A stretch of 64,000 nucleotides of DNA. Origin: Escherichia coli. Lineage in GTDB: Bacteria > Pseudomonadota > Gammaproteobacteria > Enterobacterales > Enterobacteriaceae. Positions 1 to 64,000 of the stretch are shown here, in pieces. How positions within the stretch are numbered: the first letter of the stretch is position 1; each line of letters starts with the position of its first letter. The position numbers and the translations under genes are program-made. The DNA lies in assembly GCF_003018255.1 (NCBI RefSeq), contig NZ_CP027440.1. One strand, written 5' to 3'. Below the pieces are notes generated by a model. It did no database searches. It was not told where the DNA came from and saw only the letters and a program-made list of their open reading frames with translations.

Positions 1-2216
<2,216 letters not shown>

Positions 2217-2227
2217 ACTCTCCTTAC

Positions 2228-10478: not shown

Positions 10479-10565
10479 TGGTACCCGGAGCGGGACTTGA
10501 ACCCGCACAGCGCGAACGCCGAGGGATTTTAAATCCCTTGTGTCTACCGATTCCACCATCCGGGC
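10479..10565 (-). tRNA. leuZ: tRNA-Leu (anticodon TAA)
   Basis: Reverse complement GCCCGGATGGTGGAATCGGTAGACACAAGGGATTTAAAATCCC...GGGTTCAAGTCCCGCTCCGGGTACCA; 87 nt with long variable arm and CCA end. Confidence 0.93.
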
Positions 10566-10577
10566 TCGGGAAGAAAG

Positions 10578-10651
10578 TGGAGGCGCGTTCCGGAGTCGAA
10601 CCGGACTAGACGGATTTGCAATCCGCTACATAACCGCTTTGTTAACGCGCC
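10578..10651 (-). tRNA. cysT: tRNA-Cys (anticodon GCA)
   Basis: Reverse complement GGCGCGTTAACAAAGCGGTTATGTAGCGGATTGCAAATCCGTCTAGTCCGGTTCGACTCCGGAACGCGCCTCCA; 74 nt. Confidence 0.93.
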
Positions 10652-10705
10652 AAATTCTTCAGGCCTTTCAGCCAGACATCCGCTTGACGCCGATGTCTTT
10701 TAAAC

Positions 10706-10781
<76 letters not shown>

Positions 10782-43250: not shown

Positions 43251-43337
43251 AAATCCCGACCCTGAGGGGGTCGGGATGAAACTTGCTTAAGCAAGAAGCA
43301 CTTAAAAAATTCGTTACACCAGGAAATCTGATGTGTT
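43251..43337 (-). ncRNA. dsrA: DsrA small regulatory RNA (Hfq-dependent; activates rpoS translation, represses hns)
   Basis: Minus strand reads AACACATCAGATTTCCTGGTGTAACGAATTTTTTAAGTGCTTCTTGCTTAAGCAAGTTTCATCCCGACCCCCTCAGGGTCGGGATTT; the 3' stem-loop CCCGACCCCCTCAGGGTCGGG plus U-run is its intrinsic terminator. Confidence 0.93.
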
Positions 43338-47562: not shown

Positions 47563-48483
47563 ATGCGTTTCCGCCAGTTGTTACCGCTTTTTGGCGCGCT
47601 GTTTGCGTTGTATATCATTTGGGGCTCAACCTATTTTGTCATTCGGATTGGCGTGGAAAGCTGGCCTCCGTTAATGATGGCGGGCGTTCGATTCCTGGCA
47701 GCCGGTATTTTATTGCTGGCATTTTTGCTACTGCGCGGACACAAACTTCCCCCGCTACGTCCGCTGCTCAATGCCGCGCTGATTGGCCTGTTATTGCTGG
47801 CTGTCGGTAATGGCATGGTGACGGTTGCCGAACATCAAAATGTTCCTTCCGGCATCGCCGCCGTAGTGGTTGCAACCGTGCCCCTCTTTACCCTGTGCTT
47901 CAGCCGCCTGTTTGGCATTAAAACGCGCAAACTGGAATGGGTGGGTATCGCCATTGGGCTTGCCGGAATCATCATGCTCAATAGCGGTGGAAATTTAAGC
48001 GGCAATCCGTGGGGCGCGATTCTGATTTTAATCGGCTCGATTAGCTGGGCGTTTGGCTCGGTTTATGGCTCGCGCATTACCTTACCTGTAGGGATGATGG
48101 CGGGTGCGATTGAGATGCTGGCGGCAGGCGTGGTGTTAATGATTGCGTCGATGATTGCGGGTGAAAAACTGACGGCGCTCCCTTCCCTTTCAGGCTTCCT
48201 TGCGGTCGGCTATCTGGCGCTGTTTGGTTCGATTATCGCCATTAACGCTTATATGTATTTAATCCGCAACGTCAGTCCGGCTCTCGCCACCAGCTACGCC
48301 TACGTTAACCCGGTGGTCGCGGTCTTACTGGGTACGGGACTGGGTGGCGAAACGCTGTCGAAGATTGAATGGCTGGCGCTCGGCGTGATTGTCTTCGCGG
48401 TGGTACTGGTCACGTTGGGAAAATATCTCTTCCCGGCAAAACCCGTAGTTGCGCCAGTTATTCAGGACGCATCAAGCGAGTAA
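47563..48483 (+). CDS. yedA: EamA/DMT-family transporter YedA
   Basis: 306-aa ORF with 10 predicted TM segments, MRFRQLLPLFGALFALYIIWGSTYFVIRIG. Confidence 0.9.
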   Translation: MRFRQLLPLFGALFALYIIWGSTYFVIRIGVESWPPLMMAGVRFLAAGILLLAFLLLRGHKLPPLRPLLNAALIGLLLLAVGNGMVTVAEHQNVPSGIAAVVVATVPLFTLCFSRLFGIKTRKLEWVGIAIGLAGIIMLNSGGNLSGNPWGAILILIGSISWAFGSVYGSRITLPVGMMAGAIEMLAAGVVLMIASMIAGEKLTALPSLSGFLAVGYLALFGSIIAINAYMYLIRNVSPALATSYAYVNPVVAVLLGTGLGGETLSKIEWLALGVIVFAVVLVTLGKYLFPAKPVVAPVIQDASSE

Positions 48484-48942
48484 ATGAATCCCCTGCGTGT
48501 CGATCTGCGCGCTGGCACCTTCGCCGCAGATCCACTCTTCCAGACGCTCGGTAAGCGCCGCATCCGTAAGCTTCTCGCGCCCACGTAACGCACACTCCCA
48601 GACAATCAGTACGCGCCAGCCGAGTTCCTGCAAGCGACTGATATCGCGGCGATCGCGTTCAACATTTTTACCTATCTTCTCCAGCCAGAACTCGGTTCGA
48701 GTCGCAGGCACTTTAAACAGATAGCAGTGATGATGATGCCAGAAGCAGCCGTGGGTAAATATCACGCAGCGATATTCATCAACGACAAAATCCGGGCGTC
48801 CGGGCAGACTGGCGTCCTGAACGCGAAACGCCAGGCCCTGCCCGGTTAACAAACTGGCGAGGCGCTTCTCAATCGCCGTATTACGCGTGGCAATTGCGCG
48901 CATATTTTTGCTGCGGGTGGCCTTATCGTGAACGTCGACCAT
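48472..48942 (-). CDS. vsr: very-short-patch-repair endonuclease Vsr
   Basis: ORF 48472..49104; start trimmed to [32 protein letters not shown] (156 aa); overlaps the dcm 3' end in a different frame. Confidence 0.9.
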
Positions 48943-50341
48943 GTTGTGCCTCTTGCTGACGCAACGCCACCGCCTGTTTGATTTTTGGCTCAAGCAGTTT
49001 TGCCACCGCGGCAAAGACCGGCACGACCACCGAGTTACCGAACTGGCGATAGGCCTGAGTGTCCGAAACCGGAATGCGGAATTTCGCTTCTCCCGGCGCT
49101 TCAAAACCCATTAAGCGCGCGCATTCCCGAGGCGTTAACCGACGTGGACGATGTTGCTGATTCAGCGGATCGTCAAAGTCTTTCTCACCCGTGGCCATAT
49201 CCCAGCCGCGATCGATTAGAATTTCCGCGCCATCTTTGTAATAACGCGCAGACAGCGTACGCGTGACGCTTTGCGGATTGTTCGGATAAACCATTCCATA
49301 ACCGAAGCCGTTACCGCGCGCCTGATGTTTTTTCGCATAACGATAGAGGTACTTCCACAGCACCGACGTCAGGATATATTTCGCCTCGACCATCGGGTCC
49401 AGCAGCTGCGCCAGCGTCACTCGCTGTGCAGGGAAACATTTGCTGATATCACGCAGAGTAAAATCGGCTTTCAGATTCAGATCGCGACGAAAACCCACCA
49501 GCACGATGCGTTCACGGTGCTGCGGCAGAAAATGTTTGCCGTCGATGATTTTCGGATCGTCTGGCCCGTTATCTTCTGCATCAGCCACGTCATAGCCCAG
49601 TTCGTCCAGCGTCTGCATGATGATGCGGAACGTTTTACCCTGGTCGTGACTTTTCAGGTTTTTGACGTTTTCGAGCACAAACATCGCCGGACGACGCGCG
49701 TCGATAATGCGCACCACATCAAAGAACAGCGTGCCCTGGGTATCGCAGGCAAAACCGTGCGCCCGCCCGAGCGAGTTCTTTTTCGATACGCCAGCCAGCG
49801 AAAATGGCTGACAAGGAAAACCCGCCAGTAATACATCGTGTTCAGGAATGTGTTGACGAATATGTTCCGCCGCCGCCTCATCACTCACGCCTTCTTTATG
49901 GCTGAGGGTGATGTCGCGGATATCTTCATTAAAATGATGCGTCGCCGGGTCGCAATAATGATTGGCTTTATAAGTGCGTACCGCATGTTTGTTCCATTCG
50001 CTGGTAAAGACGCACTGTCCGCCAATCGATTCAAAACCGCGACGGATGCCGCCAATTCCGGCAAATAGATCGATAAAGCGAAACGCATAATGCGGATGAT
50101 GTGCCGGTGGTTTGGGTAACAACGTTTGCAGATGGGCGAACTCTTTCTCACTTAAACGGTGCCATGCCGAGTCATTCGCCAGCGCACGTTTTAAAATTGC
50201 CGCGCTCCAGTGATTCTCACCCACACCATTAAGCTGCGCCACCAGCGTTTTAACATCATAAATTTGCAGCAGTTTCTCCAGCATTGCCTGAACGACATTC
50301 CCGGTGCTGTATGAATCGGTTACTGATATATTTTCCTGCAT
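48923..50341 (-). CDS. dcm: DNA-cytosine C5 methyltransferase Dcm (CCWGG)
   Basis: 472-aa [40 protein letters not shown]... with C5-MTase motifs FAGIGG, PCQPFS, ENV. Confidence 0.93.
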
Positions 50342-50407
50342 AGATTTAACCGGCCATCTGAGATGGCCGACAGGTTAACATAATTACTGCCGTTTAGGGC
50401 CACGCGC

Positions 50408-51103
50408 TCAGCCCGCGGGTGAAAACGCATCTATCACCTTGTGATCGACACCTTCATTCTCCCCCGCCAGTTCGGCACTGAGCTTCGCCATAAACTCGAC
50501 TAAAAATTGCGCGTTGTGCTGCGCCAGCTGCTTGCCTCTTGCGGTTTGCATGGTTTGCGGTAGCTTCAGCAACTTAGTCTGGAAATGATCCAGCGCGTAG
50601 CGTTTATCATCAAGCGGGCGATGCTGTGCGAACGGATCTTCGCCATCAAACAGCGCCACGCCCAATGCCCCTGAAACAGCAAACACGCGCGCCAGGCCAA
50701 TCGCCCCCAGGGCTTCCAGCCGATCCGCATCCTGGACGATTTTAGCTTCCGTTGTTAAGGGGGCGATTTGCGCGCTGAAACTGTGCGCGGCAATGGCATG
50801 ACAAACGGCCTCGATTTTCTCCGCCGGAAATTGCACGAACTCTTCACGGAGCAGGCGACGCGTCTCTTCTGCCGCCAGGATTGAAGAATGCTGCCGTTGC
50901 GGATGATCTTTCGCCAGGCTCACAATATCGTGAAAATAACAGGCGGATAAAATCACCAGCATATCGACATCGTCATCTGCCGCCAGCTTCTGTGCCGTAG
51001 CCCAGACGCGGCGAAAATGACACACGTCATGGGCCGCGTCCTGGTGCTGATGATGGTTTTTCAACCAGTTTTCGAACTGTGCCTGCCAGTGTTGTAAGTC
51101 CAT
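50408..51103 (-). CDS. yedJ: HD-domain phosphohydrolase YedJ
   Basis: ORF 50408..51130; start trimmed to [34 protein letters not shown] (231 aa; HD motif ...HD...D). Confidence 0.88.
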
Positions 51104-51142
51104 ACGCGCTCCGTTGCCAAAGAGTCGCAACCTTAGCAGTTT

Positions 51143-51526
51143 TTATTCATAGCGTCTGCTACGTGCGGGACGAGGTCGGGTGTACCAGGCAATGCTGCCT
51201 AACAATGCCCCGACCAGAGCCATAAATAAAAATCCGACCAGTGCCCCTAACCACTTTCCCGCGGTAGAGCCTAAATCGCTTTCAAATCCCGACACCGGGG
51301 CATCAGGGATCCGGCTCATCACCCAGATGTAACGCGCCATTGCCCAGACGAAATAGCCACACCATGTATAGAAAGCCCACAAAGCCAATTTGCCGCCAGG
51401 GCTGCGAGAGAGTCTCTCTTCCATCTTTGTCGAACCGTATTCCATTTTGAGATAACCCGGAAAATTCAGACTTAGTACTATTATGTGATAAAAGTCACAT
51501 TTTTCCACATTGGATGAGCCAGTCAA
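51143..51526 (-). CDS. yedR: inner membrane protein YedR (start codon uncertain)
   Basis: ORF with two TM helices (...LALWAFYTWCGYFVWAMARYIWV... and ...WLGALVGFLFMALVGALLGSIAWY...); the true start may be an internal Met (MEYGSTK or MEERL). Confidence 0.65.
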   Translation of the reverse strand: MTGSSNVEKCDFYHIIVLSLNFPGYLKMEYGSTKMEERLSRSPGGKLALWAFYTWCGYFVWAMARYIWVMSRIPDAPVSGFESDLGSTAGKWLGALVGFLFMALVGALLGSIAWYTRPRPARSRRYE

Positions 51527-52070
51527 GACTCAATCATTTTTTGAACAAATAGATAAATTTTGCGCAACGGCGGTGAATACAGGAAAATTCGATTTGAACG
51601 ATGTTATTTATCTTTGATTTCGGCTTTATTAATTCACTCAATCAATATATTGGCACTGATTACAATTATACCTTTTTATTTTTCTGTGTCATCATGCCTC
51701 CGTTATTAGCCTTTTATCGTCTTGTTTATATTTTTTTGGCCGGCATGATGCCGGCTTTTTTTATGCCTTCATTAATGTGCGCGAGATCACACCAGCCGTT
51801 TAGCACACAATCATTGATACTCCCTATCTTTTCGATCAACTCATAACATATTGATATACATCCATAATGTTCGTGAATATTTATATTCAGAATTCATAGC
51901 CACGAATTATATTAAATAGATTAGAAACATTTTGAAATCTTTTAAATACATTTGTTACATGTAATCTTTAAAATAAAATGAACTTCATAGAATAGTATCC
52001 AAATGTGCTTTTTTTGGATAACAGCACTTATTGATATATTCATGAAGATTATAATCACAAGGGAATACAT

Positions 52071-52172
52071 AATGAAAAGAAAAGTTCTGGCAATGCTGGT
52101 CCCGGCGTTATTAGTTGCTGGCGCAGCAAATGCGGCTGAAATTTATAATAAAAATGGGTTTTTTGTTGCCTG
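52071..52172 (+). pseudogene. yedS: 5' remnant of an OmpC-family porin gene (yedS-like), truncated after about 30 codons
   Basis: atgaaaagaaaagttctggcaatgctggtc... translates to [29 protein letters not shown] then FFVA-stop. This is the porin signal peptide plus mature N-terminus (AEIYNK[DN]G); homology ends where the prophage begins. Confidence 0.8.
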
Positions 52173-52244
52173 AAATTTATGCTCTTTAAAATCATGATGT
52201 TAGAAGCACTGTTTTTTAACGATGGCGACAAAATGGCGGCAGCG

Positions 52245-52463
52245 TCAAAGAGAGAGCGCCACCTGTCCTGATTTCATTGGATGCGGCTGAACCGGATTTG
52301 ACTCTTTTGGCGTTGCAATCGAACGAACAAAAGTTTCATGAGTAACAAAAGTATGGCTGCAGTTAATGTTCTGGCACTGGTTGTAACGCTCTTTGGTCAA
52401 TGAAGATACCTGAAAACTGCTGCGAGTATGGGCGGCACTTCCACACAGTGGGCAAATCATCAT
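52245..52463 (-). CDS. ogr: P2 Ogr-like zinc-finger late-gene transcription activator
   Basis: ORF 52245..52496; MICPLCGSAAHTRSSFQVSSLTKERYNQCQNINCSHTFVTHETF contains the CxxC...CxxxxC Ogr/Delta zinc finger. Confidence 0.85.
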   Translation of the reverse strand: MMICPLCGSAAHTRSSFQVSSLTKERYNQCQNINCSHTFVTHETFVRSIATPKESNPVQPHPMKSGQVALSL

Positions 52464-52553
52464 TTTTCGAGTTCTCCCCATTTTTGCTAAATTCACAATA
52501 ATGATACCGCATTATTCCATTTTGAAAACTTAAAAGTTCTCCATTGCGAAGAA

Positions 52554-53654
52554 TCATTCCATTTCGAAATCATCAATCTTCACTTCAAGCTCCAGACTGG
52601 TCGTAAAACCGTTATCCGGGCTGACAGTATGCGTCAGGGTGGTAATAGTCCATTCCGCATCATCTATCGGCTGTTTAAAGCCACTGACTTTCACTGGCAT
52701 TTCCGTGTAGAGATCTGCCCGCCCTTCCGCCAGTTGTAGCGAGAATGACGCAACGCCGCGTTGCAGGCGTTCCCACTGCATTTTCGCCGCTCGTTCGGCG
52801 TTGCTCCGGTTGGCATAAGTGCGATTAAGTACCAGCACGTTTTCATCCGTACCCACCAGGTAATCGCCCTGCTTCGCTTCCGGCTCTTTCTTCTGCTTCT
52901 TAGTTCTGCGCTTACGCTTCACCGTGGTGCTTTCTTTCTTCGCGGGTTCGCGGGTATGCAACCAGCTGGCAATTACGCCCGTGTAAGCTCCGCGATCTGC
53001 CAGGGTAAAGCGGTGACTGTCGCCGTCCTTACGTGTGATAGTGATAACCGGTAGTGGTTTACCACTGGCGCTTTTACCCTGCCCCTGCCTGATGAATAAC
53101 AGATTGCCATTTTTCACCGACGCAATAGCACCGTACTGGCGCGCCAGCCGCATCAGAAAACTGCCGTCACTCTCATTGGTCTGGTCTATATGTTCCACGG
53201 GTTTATCTGACAGGTCTTTACCCAATGCCATCTTCAGTTTGTGCCGCGCAGCTATTTCCTTCACCACTTCCCCAACGGTGGTCTTGTGCCACGACTTTTC
53301 ACGGCGGGTATTCAGTGTTTCACGAAAATCAGCACTTCGCGCCCGGATAGTCAGGCGGTCCGGTGCGCCAGTGTGTTCAATCTCGTCCACTGTGAATGCC
53401 CCTTTCGGGAAAAGCGGCTGCCCCTTCCAGCCTAGCGCCAGCGTAATGACCGCACCACGGCGCGGCAGCGCTATTTTTCCATCGGCGTCATCCAGGTCCA
53501 GATCAAGCTGGTCCGCTTCAAAGCCCCGGTTATCCGTCAGCGTCAGACTCATCAGGCGGTTATCCAGCACAGTGGTGATATCCCTGCCCTCAATACTGAT
53601 ACTGAATGCCGGAGTTTTGTTGCCTTTGTTAAGCAGTTCAGAGCTGAAATTCAC
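52554..53654 (-). CDS. P2 gpD-like tail protein (late control gene D)
   Basis: 366-aa ORF MNFSSELLNKGNKTPAFSISIEGRDITTVLDNRLMSLTLTDNRGFEADQLDLDLDDADG..., gpD family; position between ogr and U. Confidence 0.85.
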   Translation of the reverse strand: MNFSSELLNKGNKTPAFSISIEGRDITTVLDNRLMSLTLTDNRGFEADQLDLDLDDADGKIALPRRGAVITLALGWKGQPLFPKGAFTVDEIEHTGAPDRLTIRARSADFRETLNTRREKSWHKTTVGEVVKEIAARHKLKMALGKDLSDKPVEHIDQTNESDGSFLMRLARQYGAIASVKNGNLLFIRQGQGKSASGKPLPVITITRKDGDSHRFTLADRGAYTGVIASWLHTREPAKKESTTVKRKRRTKKQKKEPEAKQGDYLVGTDENVLVLNRTYANRSNAERAAKMQWERLQRGVASFSLQLAEGRADLYTEMPVKVSGFKQPIDDAEWTITTLTHTVSPDNGFTTSLELEVKIDDFEME

Positions 53655-54136
53655 GACAGAAGCCCTCCCACCGTTTTACTGATATCGCTTAAGGCAGATG
53701 TTGCCGTTCCCTGCAGATTATTCAGCTGCGCACTGAGATCACCGAACATATCGGACAGGGATTCATCCACCCGTTTGAGCGACAGGGTGAACTCAATCCG
53801 GCGCGGCATACCGTTGCGGAAAAACTCCGTTTTAGTCTGATTCAGTCCCTCAATCACATACATGCCGTAAATCGTGCCGCTGCCTTCAATCAGAGGCCAT
53901 GCTTTCCCCTGTTCTGCCATCTGCTCAAGTGCCAGCAACGACAGCCTGCCGCCTGTTATCTCCGGCATAAGAACACCGGAAAGCGTCAGCATGTCGTTGT
54001 CTGGTCCCAGAAACTGCGTGGACGGACGACGATTTACCCGGCTGTTAACCGCATGTCGCCAGCTGCGTTGATACTGCAGTTCCTGATACGGCACGGTGCG
54101 CAGCATAAACACGTACAATCCCAGCACCATCATCAT
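53651..54136 (-). CDS. P2 gpU-like tail protein
   Basis: 161-aa ORF; position between D and the tape-measure gene; 4-bp overlaps on both sides. Confidence 0.8.
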   Translation of the reverse strand: MMMVLGLYVFMLRTVPYQELQYQRSWRHAVNSRVNRRPSTQFLGPDNDMLTLSGVLMPEITGGRLSLLALEQMAEQGKAWPLIEGSGTIYGMYVIEGLNQTKTEFFRNGMPRRIEFTLSLKRVDESLSDMFGDLSAQLNNLQGTATSALSDISKTVGGLLS

Positions 54137-57100
54137 GCGTCGTATCCCCCCTGATCGCTGTAGTTACTCCTGGCTTTTGCCTTCAGCCTGCGTTCACGTT
54201 CATCAAGCTGGCGTGCCACCTCCCGCGCAATATCCTGCGCACTTTGTCCTGGCTGCGTCTGAATGATGATCTGCGTCGGTGCCTCAATCCGTTGAACGAG
54301 CGGCACAGTGGCTGCGCGACTCACAATTGCTTCTCCACCTTTCGCGGGAAGTGCCAAAGGGTGCAACGGTGGAAGCTCTGCTGGCGCGGCAGCAACGCCC
54401 ATCATTCCGGCAACAACGGCAGCCAGTGCAGCTGTATTTCTCCGGCTGGTCACATTTGCCGGGCCGTTAACAATTTCCGGCCCGTTTTCACCGACGATGC
54501 CAAACTGCCCGCGCGGGATATACCCGCCGCTGTCATACATCCCCGCAAAGCCATATCCCCATGATGGAAAACCACCCGATGGCATCATCACTTTACCGTC
54601 TGCATTCACCGTCGCAGGTTGCTGACGCGTCACGCTTTCCGGCAGTTTTGCCTTTGCGGCCTCTTTACTGACAATGCCGAGCTTCTCCAGCAACCAGGAA
54701 ACGCCGGATTTCAGGGAGTCCAGCGGATGCATGACCATATTCAGCCCTTCCACCAGTGCCTCCCCGAATCGCCGCCCCATTGCCGCTGCGCTCTGCAGTT
54801 CGGCAGAGGTCGACTTAACGGGCGTCAGCAGATCAGTAAACCAGCCCCACAGCGCCTGCACTTTGTCGCCAATCCACTGGAACACGGGCTTAAGCGGTTC
54901 GAACGCTGCACTGATGGGACCTGCCGCCGCTTTGAATCCTTCCACCACGCCACCGAGAAATGCGGTGATGGGTTGCCAGTATTTCCAGACAACCAGCGCC
55001 ACGCCCGCCAGTGCAGTAACCACAAGACCTATCGGACTGAGCAGAGCACCTAACAGACCAGATATGGCATACAGGGCAACGCGCAGCATCGCCAGTGGAC
55101 CAGATGCCAGTACTCGCAGCACCGTGCCTGCGGCGGCCAGTCCACCGCGCAGTACCGACAGAGGATTCATAAACATCACAGCAACAGCACGTAAACCGGA
55201 TAATCCAGACCGCAAAAGTGCAACCGGCGCACCTGCTACAGTTTTCAGGACATTTCCCGTCAGTGATGCCGTGCGGCGCAAAGACGACAACGGCGCAGTA
55301 AGTAAACCTGCGGCGTTGCCCGATGAAGCAAGCCCGCGTCGCAGCAGTGCCAGTGGTGCGCCAGCCAGCCAGGACAACGCGCTGCTGGTTCGAGTTACTG
55401 CTGCCGTAACGAAAGATAACGTTTTGATACCCAGCACAGAGAATCCCAGACGGATCACTGCCAGCGGCCCCAGCACTGCAGCCAGCGCCACCGCTAAGGT
55501 GCCGAGGCCGACGGTAACCGCAGCCACAACAGCCGATGCTTTCATCAGTGTGCCTGTCAGTTCCGGGTTAGCTTCCACCCAGCGACGCAACGCCCCCGTG
55601 ACGCTTTTCACCGTGTACAGAATATCCATCAGCGGCTGGCGCAGCGTTTCGCCCAGGCTGCTGAAGGTGTTCTGCGCTCCGGTTTTGACCAGCAACCACT
55701 GCGCAGAAAGTGAATCCTTGTTAATGTCGGATTCTTTCTGCATGGAGCCGAGCGCATCATTGCCCGCTGTCAGTTTTAACTGACGCTGCAGTTCCGGCAG
55801 GTTGTTTGCCAGTTTCGCCGCGTCATCGCCAAACTCTTTACCAAACAACATAGTCATGGCAGACAGGCGCTTGTCCTGCGGCAGCGCGTTTACCTTCTCC
55901 AGCACGCGCTGGATGGTTCCCATCGCATCCTTCGTCATCTGCTTTTCAATCACTTCAGGATTGAGTTTCAGCAAATTCATCCCTTCAAAGAAACTTTTGC
56001 TTTGCATGGTGGCAATGGACAATTCACGCACCATCGCGTTTGCTGCACTGGCTGCAACCTCTGGCGCAGCGCCCAGTGTCAGGAAGGTGGAACCCAGCGC
56101 CGCCGCTTTACGATAATCCAGACGGTCAGCCACACCGCCCAGACGTTGCATCACATCAATGATGTCTGCCCCTTTCGACATGGCGTTATCATCCAGATAG
56201 TTCAGCGCATCACCGAGCTGTTCAATATTGCGGGTGGGGATTTTGTAGAGCTGGGCGATTTTCCCCAGACTTTCTGACAGTTCATCCGCTGGCAGCTCAA
56301 AGGCTGTTGCCGCCTTTGCTGCCGTACTGGCGAAGGCCAGCAGGTCACGTTTCTGATCTTCCCAACTGTCGTCAGGGTTTGCGACGTTCATGCGCGCACC
56401 ACCTTCAACCAGTGCAGCGAAATCCACCGCACCGTTTTCCATCGGCAACTGTTCGCTGGCAGCCTTGATGGCATCCTGCATTTCATAAAAACGTGCAGTG
56501 CGGTTGCCATTATCGTCACGCAGACCATTGACCTGCTTTGCCACACCTTTCATGGCATCTTCCATGCTGGTATAGCTTTTTACTGCCGCCATCACTGGTG
56601 CGCCCATTGCCAGCCCTGCAGCCGTGGTGGTGGCTCCGGCACCTGCAATACGATCACGCACCTCCAGCGAACGGGCATAACTGGCACGCGCTGCATTCAT
56701 CCTGCGCTGAGCTTCCCCCAGTCGCTTCAGCCGCGCCTCCTGTTTCGAAAGTTCCTGGTTATAACGTGATGTTTCACGGGCTAAACGGGCAGTTGCTCCC
56801 GCATCGTCTTTCGCAGAAATTCCCGCCCGGTACAGTTCAGCACGCACAAGCGCCGTCTGCTGCTGCAGCTTTTTCTGGCGTTCTTCCAGGCGCTGAACAG
56901 CCAGCCGTTGACGGCCCAGAGCAACAACCTGACGTTGCGAAGGCGGCCCCATCGCTCCCAGTTCCTGACTGAGCAAATTTGCACGCTGGCGGGCATAGTT
57001 CAGCCTGTCGCCTAATTTCTGATTTTCTGCCTGCAGCTTTCGGAAGCTGTCCAGACTGCTCCCGGCCTGATCAAGCTGCTTTATTGCATCGCGGGATTTT

Positions 57101-57210
57101 TTGACAGCAGCAGCCAGTTCTCTTGAACTGGCCTGCGCAGATCGAAATGGGCGGGTGAGCTTGTCAACCGCATTAAGAATGACCTGCAGACGCAGGTTGT
57201 TATCACTCAT
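54133..57210 (-). CDS. tail tape-measure protein (P2 gpT-like)
   Basis: 1025-aa ORF with Ala/Leu-rich coiled-coil N-terminal half and Gly/Ala-rich segments, typical of tape-measure proteins. Confidence 0.88.
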   Translation of the reverse strand: MSDNNLRLQVILNAVDKLTRPFRSAQASSRELAAAVKKSRDAIKQLDQAGSSLDSFRKLQAENQKLGDRLNYARQRANLLSQELGAMGPPSQRQVVALGRQRLAVQRLEERQKKLQQQTALVRAELYRAGISAKDDAGATARLARETSRYNQELSKQEARLKRLGEAQRRMNAARASYARSLEVRDRIAGAGATTTAAGLAMGAPVMAAVKSYTSMEDAMKGVAKQVNGLRDDNGNRTARFYEMQDAIKAASEQLPMENGAVDFAALVEGGARMNVANPDDSWEDQKRDLLAFASTAAKAATAFELPADELSESLGKIAQLYKIPTRNIEQLGDALNYLDDNAMSKGADIIDVMQRLGGVADRLDYRKAAALGSTFLTLGAAPEVAASAANAMVRELSIATMQSKSFFEGMNLLKLNPEVIEKQMTKDAMGTIQRVLEKVNALPQDKRLSAMTMLFGKEFGDDAAKLANNLPELQRQLKLTAGNDALGSMQKESDINKDSLSAQWLLVKTGAQNTFSSLGETLRQPLMDILYTVKSVTGALRRWVEANPELTGTLMKASAVVAAVTVGLGTLAVALAAVLGPLAVIRLGFSVLGIKTLSFVTAAVTRTSSALSWLAGAPLALLRRGLASSGNAAGLLTAPLSSLRRTASLTGNVLKTVAGAPVALLRSGLSGLRAVAVMFMNPLSVLRGGLAAAGTVLRVLASGPLAMLRVALYAISGLLGALLSPIGLVVTALAGVALVVWKYWQPITAFLGGVVEGFKAAAGPISAAFEPLKPVFQWIGDKVQALWGWFTDLLTPVKSTSAELQSAAAMGRRFGEALVEGLNMVMHPLDSLKSGVSWLLEKLGIVSKEAAKAKLPESVTRQQPATVNADGKVMMPSGGFPSWGYGFAGMYDSGGYIPRGQFGIVGENGPEIVNGPANVTSRRNTAALAAVVAGMMGVAAAPAELPPLHPLALPAKGGEAIVSRAATVPLVQRIEAPTQIIIQTQPGQSAQDIAREVARQLDERERRLKAKARSNYSDQGGYDA

Positions 57211-57336
57211 CGTTGGCCCCGCTTCTCTGAATCGCTTTATACCGCCATTCCAGCACTTCGGTCAGCGGCATAACGTCAGTAACGGATGGCGGCCAGTGAA
57301 AAATGGTGGCGATATCTGCCACCAGATCGTCAACCG

Positions 57337-57639
57337 TCAGGCTGTCGGTAAACCGGCAAGCACCGACTTCTTCAACAAAAAAGTGACAACCTCAACCGAC
57401 ATGGCAGTGAGATCTGCCGGGTCCATCTCTGCAATTTCCTGTGCAGTCAGTGCCGGACTGGAGATGCGGGGGATCACGATCATCATCGCGTTTACATCCA
57501 TATCCATAATGGCCTGCAGGCGTGTACCGCGCAGCGCACCGGACTGCGGTTTACGCAGCACAATTTCGGTGATTTCTGTTTTACCGCGCTTGATGGGGGT
57601 ATCCAGTTGAATGGTCTTTTCAGTCTGCTTATCGCTCAT
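57337..57639 (-). CDS. P2 gpE-like tail assembly chaperone (0-frame product; E+E' made by -1 frameshift extends to about 57203)
   Basis: 100-aa ORF MSDKQTEKTIQLDTPIKRGKTEITEIVLRKPQSGALRGTRLQAIMDMD...; a slippery site lies near its 3' end. Confidence 0.8.
   Translation of the reverse strand: MSDKQTEKTIQLDTPIKRGKTEITEIVLRKPQSGALRGTRLQAIMDMDVNAMMIVIPRISSPALTAQEIAEMDPADLTAMSVEVVTFLLKKSVLAGLPTA
57376..57382 (-). promoter_or_regulatory. programmed -1 ribosomal frameshift slippery heptamer T-TTT-TTG (E to E+E')
   Basis: Minus strand reads ACT TTT TTG in the E frame. The -1 frame stays open for about 59 further codons, stopping at TGA overlapping the first codons of the tape-measure gene. Confidence 0.7.
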
Positions 57640-57693
57640 TTTGCTGTCCTGTCAATTGGGTTCTGGCGCGGTATCCCGCGCCGTTCAGATATA

Positions 57694-58209
57694 TCAGAGG
57701 CCGAGGGCGTTGCGGTGCGCTTCCATCAGGTCCACACCGTCCACAATTTCCACCATGTTGATAAGGTCCACTTCATAGAGCACCTCACCATTGATGGTCA
57801 GCTTCGCGTAGCTGTTGGTACTGGTCACTTTGGTGGTGTTGCTTTCGCCCGTCTTCCACTCGCCGGAATCCACTTCTTTGTGACGTCCACGCACGACAAG
57901 CTCCACAGCCTGCACTTCCCCGGTATCGTCACGCTGAATAGAGCCGGTAAAGCGCAGCTGGATGCCATCCACCGTGGCTTTACCCATCTGTTTAAACAGC
58001 AGCAATTCAGTACCACCAATGGAAAATTCTGTGTCCAGCGCACTGTCATCAAGCCCCAGATCCACATCCACCGCACCCGGCATTCCGCCGCCGCGATACT
58101 TCTCATATTTGCGGGTGAATTTCGGCAGCGTCAGCGACTCAACGATCCCCTGCCAGTTGTTCCCGTCGTTAAACAGGTTCAGGTGTTTTAATTTGCGTGG
58201 TAAAGCCAT
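57694..58209 (-). CDS. tail tube protein (P2 FII-like)
   Basis: 171-aa ORF MALPRKLKHLNLFNDGNNWQGIVESLTLPKFTRKYEKYRGGGMPGAVDVDLGLDDSALD. Confidence 0.88.
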   Translation of the reverse strand: MALPRKLKHLNLFNDGNNWQGIVESLTLPKFTRKYEKYRGGGMPGAVDVDLGLDDSALDTEFSIGGTELLLFKQMGKATVDGIQLRFTGSIQRDDTGEVQAVELVVRGRHKEVDSGEWKTGESNTTKVTSTNSYAKLTINGEVLYEVDLINMVEIVDGVDLMEAHRNALGL

Positions 58210-58218
58210 GTTGTCCCC

Positions 58219-59391
58219 TTACGCGCTGACCTGGCTGGCGAAATTCACCAGGTACTGATCGGTGATGCGCTGACGCAGCATCAGGTTTTCAAGTGGCGGC
58301 ACTGGCGTGTAGTCGTAGTCGATGGTGAGTTTTCCGGCTTTCAGCGTGTCTTTGTCGTTCACCGACTCATCCAGCCAGCAATCACCACCAATGAGATAGC
58401 CCTGACTGACCAGGCTGCGCATTTTGGCGCGGATACCTTCGATAATGTCGCGGGCCAGCGACGGGTTAAGCGGTTTATCCACCGCCCACATGTGTGCTTC
58501 TGCCATCGTGTCCATCAGCACCTGCGCCGTGCGGGTGTAGTTTTCGAAGGCAAAGAGCGGGTCATCACTCAGGCAGCGGGAACCCCAGAAGCGGAAACCG
58601 TCTTTACGCACAAGCGTGGTGACGTCGTTCTGGTTCAGCAGACCTGCATCGGTTGCCGGGTCCTGCAGATCCCAGAACACATCTGCAGAAATTCCGGTGA
58701 CACCGTTCACGCCCACGTTGGACAGGCTTTTGTGCCATCCGGTCTGCTCGTCAATTTTGGCGCGCAGACCAAGCGCACGGGCGGTGGCATATGCCGTTGC
58801 TTCGGCATTCAGCACCGTGTCCCAGCCAGTAAAGTCAGGCCAGATCAGCATCCCTTCGCGCTGGCTGAAGTTTTCGCGGTAAGTGATCGCCTCCTGCACT
58901 GTCTTGCAGCCATACGCTGACAGGTAAGCAAATCCACGCAGGCTTTGCGCCACGCTCAGCAACTCAGTAGCTACCGCCTTGGTGTCGTGGCCTGGCACGC
59001 CGAGAATGCGCGGTTTAACGCCGAGCTGTGACTGGGCAGATAACAGGGCTTTCATACCTGTTTTTTTACCTTCAGCAGTCACTGCGCCGATGATATTGGT
59101 CGTGGTTTCGTCTTCCGTTTCACCCTGCGGCACACGCACAACAATGGTCACGGGTTTTGCCTGGTCAGCGATGGCATCCAGCGAACGGGCCAGAGTACCG
59201 GACTCACCCGCTTTACCGCTGGCAGTCAGCACATCAGTGATCAGCACGGGTTTATTAAGAGGAAACATTTTTGCATCGGCATCATCGCCCGTGCAGACCA
59301 TACCCACGATGGCGGTGCTCACCGTGGTAATAGATCGGGTGCCTTCGTTGACTTCAACAACGCGCACCCCGTGGTGGTAATCCTGAGCCAT
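58219..59391 (-). CDS. contractile tail sheath protein (P2 FI-like)
   Basis: 390-aa [56 protein letters not shown]. Confidence 0.9.
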
Positions 59392-59533
59392 AGTGGCGAA
59401 CCTCCTGATTGGATTAGGCTTCGCCCTATGTTGAAGTGATTGTGCCTGACAAACAGCTAAGCGCAGTTGTGTCGTTATTCACACAAAATAACGGTATTTG
59501 TCTGCTTGCAGGGATAATCAACATAATGCTGAT

Positions 59534-60100
59534 TCAGGGGGATTCATTGATCTTATTTGCCGGAAATTTTCTATAAATGGTAGAAACGCCTACATCAAAA
59601 ATCAGTGCAATACGCTGTCTTGATTCTCCGGCCTCGAGTAAACGCCCAATCTGTGCCCACTGTTCGGTGGTCAACTTAGGACGGCGTCCACCTACTCTGC
59701 CTTTGGCACGAGCTGCAGCCAGCCCTGCCCTGGTACGTTCAACTATCAGTTCGCGTTCCATTTCAGCCAGGGCACCCATGACATGAAAAAAGAAACGGCC
59801 CATTGGGGTACTGGTATCAATACTGTCAGTCAGGCTTCTGAAATTCACACCACGCTGGCGCAACTCTTCTATCAGCGTAACAAGATGCCGCATACTGCGC
59901 CCCAACCTGTCCAGCTTCCAGACAACCAGCGTGTCTCCTGCCGATAGTGTCCTGAGTAGTTTTTTCAGCCCCGGTCTGTCGGACTTAGTGCCACTGATTT
60001 TGTCCTCAAAAATCCGCTCACATCCCGCGCAGTTCAGTGCATTACGTTGCAAATCGGTGTTCTGGTCATTTGTTGACACGCGTACATAGCCAATAAGCAT
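59534..60100 (-). CDS. pin: serine-recombinase DNA invertase (Pin/Gin/Cin/Hin family)
   Basis: ORF 59534..60106; MLIGYVRVSTNDQNTDLQRNAL... with catalytic Ser in the YVRVST motif and C-terminal HTH (GVSTIYRKF); very close to e14 Pin. Confidence 0.9.
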   Translation of the reverse strand: MLIGYVRVSTNDQNTDLQRNALNCAGCERIFEDKISGTKSDRPGLKKLLRTLSAGDTLVVWKLDRLGRSMRHLVTLIEELRQRGVNFRSLTDSIDTSTPMGRFFFHVMGALAEMERELIVERTRAGLAAARAKGRVGGRRPKLTTEQWAQIGRLLEAGESRQRIALIFDVGVSTIYRKFPANKINESP

Positions 60101-60155
60101 GATCATCCCCCTGAATAAAAACCGGAGATGATGCCAGTTAGCTGTTACCTCTGCA

Positions 60156-60181
60156 TTTTCTTAAACGTTGGTTTGGGAGAA
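60156..60181. repeat. invertase crossover site, left (pix/gix/cix-like)
   Basis: ttttcttaaacgttggtttgggagaa; inverted repeat of the site at 62124..62149. Confidence 0.75.
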
Positions 60182-60664
60182 GGTTCAGCATTACCTGTTG
60201 GTGCGCCTGTTCCGTGGCCTTCAGAGACACCTCCAACAGGCTGGCTGAAATGCAACGGGGCGGCTTTTTCTGCTGAAGAATACCCGGAACTGGCAAAGGC
60301 TTACCCGACAAATAAATTGCCTGATTTACGAGGTGAATTTATTCGTGGCTGGGATGATGAACGTGGTGTGGATAGTGGGCGAACTCTGCTTTCAGCGCAA
60401 GGAGATGCTATTCGAAACATTACTGGCGGTTTTGGTCAGTTGCGCGTAAACAGCGAAATTAATGCAATTGTCGATGTTCAAAGTGTGAGTGGGGCTTTTT
60501 ACGGAGGTACCTCAGTCCGGAATAACATCAATGTGTCTATGACATACGCTAATGACCGAAAAATCCGACAAGATGTTCACTTCTCGGCGGCAAATGTTGT
60601 TCCAACAGCAAATGAAAATCGTCCACGTAACATCGCCTTTAATTATATTGTGAGGGCCGCATGA
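60156..60664 (+). CDS. alternative tail-fibre C-terminal segment (Sv'-like), silent in this orientation and lacking its own start
   Basis: The frame is open through the crossover site (..LGE-GSALPVGAPVPWPSETPPTGWLKCNGAAFSAEEYPELAKAYPTNKLPDLRGEFIRGWDDERG...), so inversion would fuse it to the H constant part at the conserved GLGE junction. The track's ATG at 60128 is probably not a real start. Confidence 0.7.
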
Positions 60665-61265
60665 TGAATAAAGCTGTATTAAATAGCAAACTCATTGCCA
60701 TAAAAGCGGGAGACATTATCATTTATAATTATGATGGTGAAACGCGGGAATATATTTCTACATCAACTGAATATCTCGCTGTCGGCGTCGGTATCCGGCA
60801 TGTTCTTGTTTGGATGCACCAGGTACACATAAAGCTGGTTATGCAATTTGTCGTTCTGTAGATTTAAACTCATGGGAATATGTGCCAGACCATCGCGGTG
60901 AAGTTGTCTATAACACCGAAACGGGAGAATCAAAAGAAATCACAGCTCCGGGTGATTACCCTGAAAATACAACCACTATCGCCCCATTAACGCCATACGA
61001 TAAATGGGATGGCGAGAAATGGGTGACGGATACCGAGGCACAGCATAGCGCCGCAGTAGATGCAGCGGAAGCACAGCGCCAGTCGCTGATTGATACTGCA
61101 ATGGCTTCCATCAGTCTGATTCAACTGAAATTGCATGCCGGACGTAAACTGACGCAGGCAGAAACAACCCGGCTTAACGCTGTGCTGGATTACATTGACA
61201 CGGTGACGGCAACAGATACCAGCACCGCGCCGGATGTCATCTGGCCTGAACTACCGGAGGCGTAG
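60661..61265 (+). pseudogene. tail-fibre assembly protein gene (Tfa', partner of Sv') with an apparent 1-bp frameshift
   Basis: N-terminal part in frame 1 (60661..60861, MMNKAVLNSKLIAIKAGDIIIYNYDGETREYISTSTEYLAVGVGI) and C-terminal part in another frame (60810..61265, ...DAPGTHKAGYAICRSV...TDTSTAPDVIWPELPEA). The frames join if one C is added in ggtatc-cggca around 60795. Confidence 0.6.
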
Positions 61266-61680
61266 GCCATTCAATATCTGGAGCACTGGAGGTATCAACC
61301 AGTTCCAGTGCGTCCAGATAATCCAGCCATAAATTATATTGTTCCAGTTCGTCACCTTTCAGACGACCAATAGCAGCTTTGCCAGGCCACTGATGGGTGT
61401 TGATGTAGGTATTGGCTTCTGAAACCAAAGATATTTTTTTCATTTCAGCCATCAACACCTCATCCTCTTTTGAAGGCGGTGGGGAATTAATCCATATTGG
61501 CCGTCCTGAACTGTCAGCGCCAATTTCTTTCCCTTCTGGATGCAGCCCAAGAAATTGCTCATATCTTTCTCTGGTAATTTCAATAACATCATCAGGAAGC
61601 GTTCCCGCATCCTCATATTCTGGAAACAATTCTTGCAGATAAAAACTTTTACTTCCGGGTGAAAAGAATACTGAGTTCAT
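61237..61680 (-). CDS. tail-fibre assembly protein (Tfa / P2 gpG-like), active orientation
   Basis: 147-aa ORF directly downstream of H; C-terminus ...DTSSAPDIEWPTPPVVQAR resembles the Tfa family C-terminal motif. Confidence 0.8.
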   Translation of the reverse strand: MNSVFFSPGSKSFYLQELFPEYEDAGTLPDDVIEITRERYEQFLGLHPEGKEIGADSSGRPIWINSPPPSKEDEVLMAEMKKISLVSEANTYINTHQWPGKAAIGRLKGDELEQYNLWLDYLDALELVDTSSAPDIEWPTPPVVQAR

Positions 61681-61682
61681 TC

Positions 61683-63185
61683 TTACCGTCCAATGATTAA
61701 GGCTGAGACGCTGGTATCTGAAGGAAAGGCTGCATTCAGTGGTTTGTCGACTTTGAATACAATCGTATTATTCCCCCTGACAGCGGCAAAAGAACAAACC
61801 GCAGTCGCGTATGAACCTGTAATATTACTGGATACACCACCATAAGCTGTTGTTGATACCAGAGGGATAACGCCCAGCACCTTATTAGGAAATACAAAGG
61901 GCAATGTGGCTGTGGCAATATAAGACTTATTAGAACCTGTGATGGAATAAGCATTATCAGTCATTCCATTCATCGCCACTGGGCCGCTTATACTTACAGT
62001 AACCATCTGAATGATTAGCCCGTCAGGTTGACGAATCACAAAATTTCCATTGCCACCAGTAACCGTCCAGAAAGACATATCAGGGATTTGGTTTTCCCCG
62101 TTGCCCACATTCCGTTTTGCCGCTTCTCCCAAACCAAGGTATGTGAGAAGACCAGCTACATCCTTTCCACTCAAATTGGTAAGCGTATTGTCCAGCGGTT
62201 GTTTACCTGCCAGCGCATTAAGCATTGTCGTGGCAAAGTTCGGATCATTCCCCAGTGCCGCCGCCAGTTCGTTCAGTGTATCCAGTGCAGCAGGTGCAGA
62301 ACCCACCATTCCTGCAATCGCCGATTTCACAAAAGCCGTAGTGGCAATCTGTGTATTGTTGACCGACTGCGCCGCCGTGGGGGCTGTTGGCGTTCCGGTG
62401 AGTGCCGGACTCGACAACGGTGCTTTTAGTGCCAGCGCATTGTTAATGGTGGTACTGAAATTCGGATCATTGTTAATGGCTGCGGCTATTTCTTTCAGCG
62501 TGTCCAGCGTGGCTGGCGCACCATTAATAAGGGCCGTCAGTGCCGCCTGTACAAACGCAGTGGTCGCAACCTGCGTGGTATTATTCCCCGCCGCTGGCGT
62601 TGGCGCTTTGGGGGTTCCGGTAAATGTCGGGCTGGCTTTTGGCGCGTACTGTGAATGCGGGTCCGGTGCGGCAAGATGTTTTGCCATCTGATCATCCGCG
62701 TACACCTTCAGCTCCAGTGCCTTGTCATCCACATACTTGCGGGTTGCCAGCACTACAGCAGGGTCGATTTTCAGGGTGATATTGTCCGTGCTGCTGGTAA
62801 TCAGCACCATGCGCACGGTCTGAGTGCGCCCGCTACCTTCAGCCAGTTGCGGCTTATAGCTTTCCGGGCAGTTGCCCACGGCAATCAATGCCCCGGACTC
62901 ATCAAACAAGCCCACTTCACGTATCCACCAACCGCCCTCGTTTTCAGGGATCACCTGTTCGGCAATAATCTGGCTGCTGTTCTGCGGGTCGATATAAAGC
63001 ATATTCAGCGCAGCCCGGCGTTTCTCATTTACCAGTGCCGTCTGCTTTGCGTCCGGCGTTGGCAATACTCCACCGCCATCGCCCACCGCCATATGGGTAA
63101 TTTTTAGCGGCACACCGAGCGCGGCGGCGCTGGCAAGTTTCGCCGCGCCAATATCCGTCAGCAGGGTATAAAATTTTGTGCTCAT
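61683..63185 (-). CDS. tail fibre protein (P2 gpH-like); C-terminal part (61683..62123) lies inside the invertible segment
   Basis: 500-aa ORF; N-terminus MSTKFYTLLTDIGAAKLASAAALGVPLKITHMAVGDGGG... resembles P2 gpH; repeated motif TAFV...ALDTLNELAAALGNDPNF. Confidence 0.88.
   Translation of the reverse strand: MSTKFYTLLTDIGAAKLASAAALGVPLKITHMAVGDGGGVLPTPDAKQTALVNEKRRAALNMLYIDPQNSSQIIAEQVIPENEGGWWIREVGLFDESGALIAVGNCPESYKPQLAEGSGRTQTVRMVLITSSTDNITLKIDPAVVLATRKYVDDKALELKVYADDQMAKHLAAPDPHSQYAPKASPTFTGTPKAPTPAAGNNTTQVATTAFVQAALTALINGAPATLDTLKEIAAAINNDPNFSTTINNALALKAPLSSPALTGTPTAPTAAQSVNNTQIATTAFVKSAIAGMVGSAPAALDTLNELAAALGNDPNFATTMLNALAGKQPLDNTLTNLSGKDVAGLLTYLGLGEAAKRNVGNGENQIPDMSFWTVTGGNGNFVIRQPDGLIIQMVTVSISGPVAMNGMTDNAYSITGSNKSYIATATLPFVFPNKVLGVIPLVSTTAYGGVSSNITGSYATAVCSFAAVRGNNTIVFKVDKPLNAAFPSDTSVSALIIGR
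62124..62149. repeat. invertase crossover site, right (pix/gix/cix-like)
   Basis: ttctcccaaaccaaggtatgtgagaa; lies inside the H coding sequence at codons ~346-354 (LTYLGLGEA). Confidence 0.75.
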
Positions 63186-63787
63186 GGATTCACTCTCATT
63201 GTGTCAATAACATGGACCGCCCCGCCTTCATGCGCGGTGCCACCGGAAATAATCGTTTCGTTGATATACGGATAGATCGTGATTTCTTCGCCAAGATAGC
63301 TGGCGGCTCCCACCCAATGCGGGCCGCTGGTCTGCAGATTGATGGACATGCCGATCATGTGGCGGCTACATGGTTTGGCATCGCTTATCAGTCGCTCAAG
63401 TTCCAGATAGGTATCTTCAGTGATGCCCTGGTCCTGCACGCCGATATCCAGGCGAAACGTGCCCGGTGTTTCTCCGGTCTGCCACCACTCAATAATGCGG
63501 ATCAGGAATCCGAACGGTTCCACCGCCCGCCGCACGGCACTGGTGGTTCCTTTATGCTGATGAATATAAAAAGCATCCTTCACTACCTGGCGTTTGACGC
63601 TTTCTGTCCAGCCCTCGTCCCAGCGATCCACAGAGAACGCCCAGGCGAGATAAGGCAGGAAGCTGACCGGACAGGTAGCCGGATTCCACAAGTCACGCAG
63701 CGGCACCTGCAAATCAGAAATCCCGCTACAGGTTTGCGCCAGTCGGCGCTCCAGTGAAGTTGAACCCGGTGGCAGCAGACTATTCAT
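63182..63787 (-). CDS. baseplate protein (P2 gpI-like)
   Basis: 201-aa ORF with RDLWNPATCPVSFLPYLAWAFSVDRWDE... matching my memory of P2 gpI (RELWNPDTCPANLLPWLAWAFSVDRWDE). Confidence 0.85.
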   Translation of the reverse strand: MNSLLPPGSTSLERRLAQTCSGISDLQVPLRDLWNPATCPVSFLPYLAWAFSVDRWDEGWTESVKRQVVKDAFYIHQHKGTTSAVRRAVEPFGFLIRIIEWWQTGETPGTFRLDIGVQDQGITEDTYLELERLISDAKPCSRHMIGMSINLQTSGPHWVGAASYLGEEITIYPYINETIISGGTAHEGGAVHVIDTMRVNP

Positions 63788-64000
63788 CCGTTCCTCCGTT
63801 GGTTACGCTCCACTGCGTACATGATGCCGCCTGTGTTTTGTTCAGGACCACATCCGCCAGCGGAGAAGCCAGTTCCACACGTTGAACACCCTCAACATGC
63901 AGAGCAGCAAAGATGGCGCTACGGCGAATATCCCGACCAAGCCTCGTCTGGCTGGCAATGTACTTCTGCAGACTGGCTTTTGCCGCTGCCATTACCGGCT
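63780..64000 (-). CDS. baseplate assembly protein (P2 gpJ-like), C-terminal part only (5' end beyond window)
   Basis: ORF fragment ...LQKYIASQTRLGRDIRRSAIFAALHVEGVQRVELASPLADVVLNKTQAASCTQWSVTNGGTDE; overlaps the gpI start. Confidence 0.75.
   Translation of the reverse strand, partial: PVMAAAKASLQKYIASQTRLGRDIRRSAIFAALHVEGVQRVELASPLADVVLNKTQAASCTQWSVTNGGTDE

Follow-up and report, generated by a model that had tools for sequence, protein, structure and literature searches.

The dcm-vsr locus and its chromosomal context

The window, meaning the whole stretch of 64,000 nucleotides that was analysed, is a piece of the Escherichia coli chromosome that carries uvrC, the flagellar region, dgcQ, yedI, yedA, vsr, dcm, yedJ, drpB and rseX and, beyond these, a P2-like prophage. 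[quoted passage not shown] The order yedI - yedA - vsr - dcm - yedJ - drpB - rseX, established from open reading frames (ORFs), annotation transfer and Rfam matches, is that of K-12, and the neighbors yedI, yedA, yedJ and drpB are those found in both K-12 MG1655 and E. coli DETEC-S792. The convergent overlap between the 3' ends of vsr and yedA is annotated likewise in K-12 (locus coordinates: yedA 1040..1960, vsr 1949..2419).

Table 1. Coordinates, in the numbering of the window, of the dcm-vsr operon and of other features
Feature	Position	Strand	Basis or remark
dcm, DNA-cytosine (C5) methyltransferase, 472 aa	48923..50341	-	ORF list, profile matches, motifs
vsr, very-short-patch repair T:G mismatch endonuclease, 156 aa	48472..48942	-	translation, profiles, PDB match
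dcm/vsr overlap, 20 nt	48923..48942	-	vsr in +1 frame relative to dcm
Sole difference from K-12 inside the overlap	48938	-	Dcm G468 GGC to GGT, synonymous; Vsr A2V GCC to GTC
Shine-Dalgarno-like AAGAGG for vsr	48949..48954	-	6 nt upstream of vsr ATG, within dcm codons Q-E-A
Convergent 3'-end overlap of vsr (-) with yedA (+, 47563..48483)	48472..48483	.	12 nt
RseX sRNA	51673..51762	+	Rfam gathering threshold
DsrA sRNA	43251..43337	-	Rfam gathering threshold
tRNA-Leu(taa)/Cys(gca)/Gly(gcc) cluster	10479..10781	-	Rfam gathering thresholds/ARAGORN

Over 1870 nt, the operon is 97.9% identical to that of K-12 at the nucleotide level, with 39 differences. The junction between the two genes is matched at 90% identity or more in 5367 of the 5426 complete E. 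coli genomes, although none of the complete genomes in the collection is identical to it over the 140 nt from 48873 to 49012 (best match 99.3%). The whole operon finds its best matches among them at 98.7-98.9%, which is lower than the 99.1-99.6% of the flanking 25-kb blocks, whose best-matching strains differ from one block to the other. This pattern suggests a local mosaic or recombinant history around dcm-vsr.

At the right end of the window, coverage of at least 80% of positions 50001..64000 is reached in only 18 of the 5426 complete genomes. The P2-like prophage occupies approximately 52150..64000 and includes ogr, gpD, tail, tape measure, sheath, tube and baseplate genes, as well as a recombinase gene adjoining those for the tail fibre. 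Just before it lies a remnant of about 90 nt, for which OkiPb01675 annotates only an incomplete hypothetical protein, and at whose site K-12 and DETEC-S792 carry the yedS/porin gene.

The dcm gene and its product

The dcm frame holds 472 sense codons without a single internal stop and closes with a TAA at 48925..48923. Its product scores well above the curated cut-offs of the NCBIfam profiles PRK10458 (947.7 bits against 710) and TIGR00675 (351.3 against 100.65) and of the Pfam profile PF00145 (261.7 against 22), and also matches PF18284, the Pfam model of the Dcm N-terminal domain. All of the C5-methylase motifs looked for are present: motif I (FxGxG, F93-G97), motif IV (PCQ, P176-C177-Q178), motif VI (ENV, at 224), motif VIII (QxRxR, Q274) and motif X (GNSV, G435). 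Motif I binds AdoMet, and the cysteine of motif IV acts as the nucleophile.

The protein is identical to K-12 Dcm in 468 of 472 residues, the differences being A16V, A17V, E301K and P326S. The last two fall in the variable region between motifs VIII and X, which holds the target-recognition function in this enzyme family. Because of its identity to the K-12 enzyme, Dcm is expected here to methylate the inner C of CCWGG. Exactly the same protein has already been deposited for E. coli, where it is found on 59 contigs. The protein cluster at 90% identity that contains it also includes a 610-aa UvrC from Klebsiella, presumably an artefact of the database clustering or of its read-out.

Upstream of dcm there is no obvious Shine-Dalgarno sequence of its own, the best anti-Shine-Dalgarno duplex reaching -3.3 kcal/mol, and a simple scan of 48200..50700 for sigma-70 promoters found no promoter-like site. 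The 66-nt spacer between yedJ and dcm differs from K-12 at three positions, with two more in the 3' end of yedJ (126 nt compared). This spacer holds a perfect 9-bp palindrome, CGGCCATCT-C-AGATGGCCG, at 50351..50369 on the minus strand, with 9 nt between it and the dcm ATG. The palindrome is kept in K-12, and could be a terminator or attenuator for yedJ, or else a regulator of dcm translation.

The vsr gene and its product

The vsr gene runs from an ATG at 48942..48940 to a TGA at 48474..48472, with 156 codons and no internal stop. The protein matches TIGR00632 with 182 bits against a cut-off of 97.85 (protein residues 1-118 to profile positions 1-119), PF03852 with 132.4 bits against 27, and the solved chain of E. 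coli Vsr in PDB entry 1CW0 with an E-value of 1e-104. All 14 of the residues checked are in place: M14, I17, D51, T63, H64, C66, F67, W68, H69, H71, C73, W86, D97 and C117. In structure work on 1CW0, D51, T63, H64, H69 and D97 are reported to be the catalytic and metal-binding residues, C66, H71, C73 and C117 the zinc ligands, and F67, W68, W86, M14 and I17 the DNA-intercalating residues.

Vsr is identical to its K-12 counterpart in 153 of 156 residues (A2V, D21N and E128A) and, being nearly the same as the characterized enzyme, should nick 5' of the T in T:G mismatches within CTWGG/CCWGG. The idea that D21N might be damaging is rejected, as asparagine is the second commonest residue at position 21 among 121 homologues (38 N vs. 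67 D); within E. coli it is rare there. The exact protein has been deposited for E. coli on 93 contigs, and the deposited E. coli proteins identical to the Dcm and Vsr described here come from draft genomes and have consecutive accession numbers.

The overlap between dcm and vsr

The sequence-only reading had placed the vsr start 20 bp inside the 3' end of dcm, in a different frame, and both parts of that claim are borne out, with the coordinates given for the overlap exact to the nucleotide. Translation of both frames across the junction (48800..49060) has dcm ending at its TAA and the ATG of vsr opening upstream of it. On the minus strand, the dcm frame reads ...CAG CAA GAG GCA CAA CAT GGT CGA CGT TCA CGA TAA, and the vsr frame ATG GTC GAC GTT CAC GAT AAG..., that is, MVDVHDK.... 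On the dcm side, the shared stretch comprises the last two nucleotides of codon H467, codons G468 to R472 and the stop (17 sense nucleotides plus the TAA); on the vsr side, codons M1 to D6 and the first two nucleotides of codon K7. The stop codon of dcm is made from Vsr codons 6 and 7. As vsr starts at position 1400 of the operon and (1400-1) mod 3 equals 1, it is read in the +1 frame with respect to dcm. The further claim that the strain has an intact dcm-vsr pair also holds, given profile scores far above the cut-offs, the finding of every residue checked and the lack of internal stops. The one substitution in the overlap that separates this strain from K-12 (Table 1) is an allele shared with DETEC-S792.

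In the program-made ORF list, the vsr frame opens farther upstream, with a TTG at 49104, for a protein of 210 aa. This longer ORF is rejected, as its 54-residue extension is dcm read out of frame and the profiles begin at the ATG. TIGR00632 and PF03852 align from residues 1-3 of the ATG-started protein, and the 155-residue chain of 1CW0 aligns from query residue 3, which corresponds to chain residue 2. The N-terminus of Vsr is therefore placed at ATG 48942. Among orthologues, moreover, the first 14 residues of Vsr are kept from genus to genus although the DNA varies. These alignments, the conserved N-terminus and a Shine-Dalgarno-like site just upstream of the ATG all argue against a start at the TTG.

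That site, AAGAGG, probably acts as the Shine-Dalgarno sequence of vsr. It forms a duplex of -5.8 kcal/mol with the 3' end of the 16S rRNA, a value equalled by only 4.6% of the 12-mers in the operon, and purine runs resembling GAG or GGAG occupy the same position in enteric orthologs.

Junctions between methylase and vsr genes in other bacteria

The comparison was extended to 120 vsr loci from species-representative genomes, picked out by a degenerate nucleotide pattern that encodes the Vsr motif F-x-H-G-C-F-W-H, in which the Vsr and C5-methylase ORFs were located with phmmer and hmmsearch. A methylase gene is adjacent to vsr on the same strand in 42 of the 120 loci, lying immediately upstream in 26 and immediately downstream in 16. 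Junctions in the 26 upstream cases range from a gap of 139 nt to an overlap of 49 nt: in 15 of them the methylase gene overlaps vsr by 1-49 nt, and the others are gapped by up to 139 nt. No methylase match was found in 34 vsr loci for which 1.2 kb or more of upstream sequence was available.

In this sample, the 20-nt class of overlap belongs to enteric orthologues only, namely those of Escherichia albertii, Citrobacter werkmanii and Enterobacter cloacae. All three share with the window an overlap of precisely this length and a TAA drawn from Vsr codons 6 and 7 (GAT or AAT followed by AAR), a geometry that is kept despite many substitutions nearby. They differ from the window in the C-terminal tail of Dcm, which has diverged. 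Among the enteric orthologues, the part of Dcm within the overlap is poorly conserved and the N-terminus of Vsr, MADVH(D/N)KATRSKNM, is conserved.

More distant relatives depart from this arrangement. In Superficieibacter electus (L123, 736..835), the ATG has become CAG and the next GTG is apparently the start, leaving an overlap of 14 nt. In Enterobacter sp. Ag1 (L060, about 2675..2774), residue 6 of Vsr is Ser, so that no TAA is formed, and a shorter dcm stops 12 nt short of the vsr ATG, with a gap instead of an overlap. Enterobacter sp. Bisph1 (L103, 6692..7897) carries a close vsr orthologue (282 bits) in a yedI-yedA-vsr-yedJ slot without dcm, where vsr starts 12 nt past the yedJ stop, and may hold an orphan Vsr. 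Within E. coli itself, strain CM13 (L124, 3000..3522) has dcm cut to a 72-nt 3' remnant directly before an intact vsr, which has the look of a dcm deletion, whether engineered or natural, that spares the ribosome-binding site and start of vsr.

The survey also returned vsr genes of other kinds. E. albertii (L092) and C. werkmanii (L072) each have, on another contig, a second vsr paralogue that has diverged, scoring about 95-103 bits against E. coli Vsr, and the DNA fetched around these paralogues gave no C5-methylase match to the E. coli Dcm query. A metagenome-assembled genome (MAG) of the Acetobacteraceae (L045, 9866..11791) contains a stop-to-stop segment of 642 codons with Vsr (43-162) followed by a C5 methylase (203-573), which may represent either a fusion of Vsr to a methylase or a pair of genes that share a frame with no stop between them.

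The occurrence of a gap in Enterobacter sp. Ag1 and of a syntenic vsr lacking dcm in Enterobacter sp. Bisph1 raises the idea that vsr is a stable resident of the yedA-yedJ slot in Enterobacteriaceae and dcm is dispensable, the 20-nt overlap having arisen by capture of the stop within Vsr codons 6 and 7. This idea is unlikely; were it true, Vsr would have a role independent of the adjacent methylase. It is in any case not specific to the window, where the pair is entirely standard.

Probable coupling of expression and mismatch repair

In K-12, Dcm methylates CCWGG and Vsr nicks the T:G mismatches that result from deamination of 5-methylcytosine (PMC4444293; PMC12907096). They form one operon with a shared transcript (PMC12907096). 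Part of dcm overlaps vsr, and in dcm-6, where a nonsense mutation interrupts dcm at codon 45, the activity of vsr is lost too (PMC4444293, citing Dar and Bhagwat 1993). By analogy with this literature, a promoter upstream of dcm would drive a single transcript, expression of vsr would depend on the translation of dcm, and coupling of the K-12 type probably operates in this strain.

The sequence of events would be as follows. Dcm would methylate the inner cytosine of CCWGG, and spontaneous deamination of the resulting 5-methylcytosine would leave a T:G mismatch. Vsr would then nick on the 5' side of the T, allowing a short patch to be resynthesized and the C restored. Both steps are established for the K-12 proteins, with which Dcm and Vsr of this strain share about 98-99% of their residues. 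Because the ribosome-binding site and start of vsr are embedded in the last codons of dcm, Vsr would be made from the dcm transcript and depend on reading through dcm. Its translation may benefit from, or even require, ribosomes traversing dcm, and the output of the repair nuclease would thereby be tied to that of the mutagenic methylase.

The sequence-only reading had called this the classic arrangement coupling methylation with repair. The K-12 literature supports that description, with a refinement: what is coupled is expression, through a shared transcript and the dependence of vsr on upstream dcm translation, and the overlap as such does not appear to be obligatory, since the genes are separated by 12 nt in a related enteric species and vsr occurs without dcm in a different one. 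Nor are the activities of Dcm and Vsr simply locked together, because VSP repair reportedly works for the most part in stationary phase (PMC2715241).

A hairpin in the RNA that masks the Shine-Dalgarno sequence and AUG of vsr would, if true, offer a simple mechanism for the dependence of vsr on dcm translation. This candidate is rejected for want of statistical or covariation support. The predicted 70-nt hairpin has a minimum free energy (MFE) of -22.3 kcal/mol with a z-score of -1.58, which becomes -0.30 in a 130-nt context. RNAalifold on seven enteric orthologues, a set of low power, did not recover the hairpin at the vsr ribosome-binding site and gave a covariation term of +0.04. Counting pairs in seven orthologues gave 72.1% paired vs. 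72.5% in shuffles, with one compensatory pair. A literature search on translational coupling of vsr and dcm found nothing.

Alternative readings of the overlap

Taken together, the locus is read as the chromosomal dcm-vsr operon of an ordinary E. coli, intact and arranged as in K-12, with the expression of vsr tied to that of dcm (probability about 0.96). Within this reading, the length of the overlap can be seen as a neutral by-product, where selection acts on the linkage of the operon and on the N-terminus of Vsr but not on the overlap. Dcm would simply run to the first in-frame stop, which Vsr codons 6 and 7 (GAT or AAT plus AAR) supply as TAA, and the 20 nt would have no function beyond the close packing of co-translated genes. 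The poor conservation of the overlapped Dcm tail next to a conserved Vsr N-terminus favors such a view, as do the 12-nt gap of Enterobacter sp. Ag1, the 14-nt overlap with a GTG start in Superficieibacter, the wide variation among the 26 upstream-methylase junctions together with the 16 downstream cases (n = 120) and the absence of covariation in the predicted hairpin at the vsr ribosome-binding site. Against it stands the persistence of the exact 20-nt geometry in Escherichia, Citrobacter and Enterobacter despite nearby substitutions. The activity of vsr reportedly needs upstream translation of dcm, which would also speak for a functional overlap, but closely abutting genes would do likewise. 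Neutrality is a credible possibility that falls somewhat short of an even chance, and it concerns only why the length is 20 nt and not the identity of the genes.

Two further proposals would change the reading of the junction itself. One is that there is no true overlap and Vsr starts downstream, past the dcm stop, for instance at Met14 (ATG 48903..48901). Codon 14 is indeed an in-frame ATG, and a protease-resistant core of Vsr lacking about 20 N-terminal residues has been crystallized (1VSR and 1ODG align from residues 22-23). However, the Vsr profiles align from residue 1, 1CW0 carries the upstream N-terminus, and synonymous changes in the DNA leave residues 1-13 conserved from genus to genus. 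R10, S11 and M14 hardly vary among 121 homologues, a Shine-Dalgarno-like site lies 6 nt before ATG 48942, and removal of the first 14 residues weakens both the endonuclease and the repair activity of Vsr (PMC2715241). A downstream start is accordingly very improbable. Still harder to credit is a programmed +1 frameshift within the overlap, leading to a Dcm-Vsr fusion. The frame of vsr is +1 and stays open for 54 codons upstream, and the Acetobacteraceae segment, which matches both Vsr and C5-methylase profiles, indicates that fused forms may exist; yet the order in that segment, Vsr and then methylase, is the reverse of dcm-vsr. Inspection by eye of the 17 shared sense nucleotides revealed neither a slippery nor a stop-stimulated +1 site of any known kind, an ATG and a Shine-Dalgarno-like sequence serve vsr separately, and the solved Vsr is a free-standing protein of 155-156 residues. 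Dcm and Vsr are reportedly made as separate proteins.

Implications for the strain

The overlap described here is real, the gene pair is intact, and the arrangement was known in detail beforehand. What is new is confined to the comparative picture of how variable the junction is, including a syntenic vsr without dcm, and it comes from other genomes and not from the window. The overlap matters little beyond annotation, and the survey of junctions opens no new question.

In practical terms, the strain should be Dcm+ and Vsr+. A Dcm+ strain would yield DNA methylated at CCWGG, which bears on cloning and on methyl-sensitive restriction, and in a Vsr+ strain VSP repair should limit C-to-T mutation at the CCWGG hotspots. 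Deletions of dcm must spare its last ~70 nt or else vsr loses its ribosome-binding site and start, a design illustrated by CM13.

Comparison with known systems

The closest known system is the dcm (b1961)-vsr (b1960) pair of K-12 MG1655, which has the same order and strand, the same 20-nt overlap with vsr in the +1 frame and the same protein lengths of 472 and 156 aa. Its RefSeq annotation, with vsr at 2030448..2030918 and dcm at 2030899..2032317, gives this overlap directly, and the record of DETEC-S792 annotates it likewise. Together with the junction matches throughout E. coli and the conservation in three further enteric species, the K-12 annotation shows that the overlap is no chance occurrence. 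Other pairs of an m5C-methyltransferase and Vsr, such as those of Neisseria, where Vsr is found beside methylase genes, are alike in the functional tie between the two enzymes but differ in gene order, junction and targets. In Caulobacter, the Vsr-family nuclease VsrA is functionally tied to the C5 methylase ScmA although their genes are unlinked (PMC12907096).
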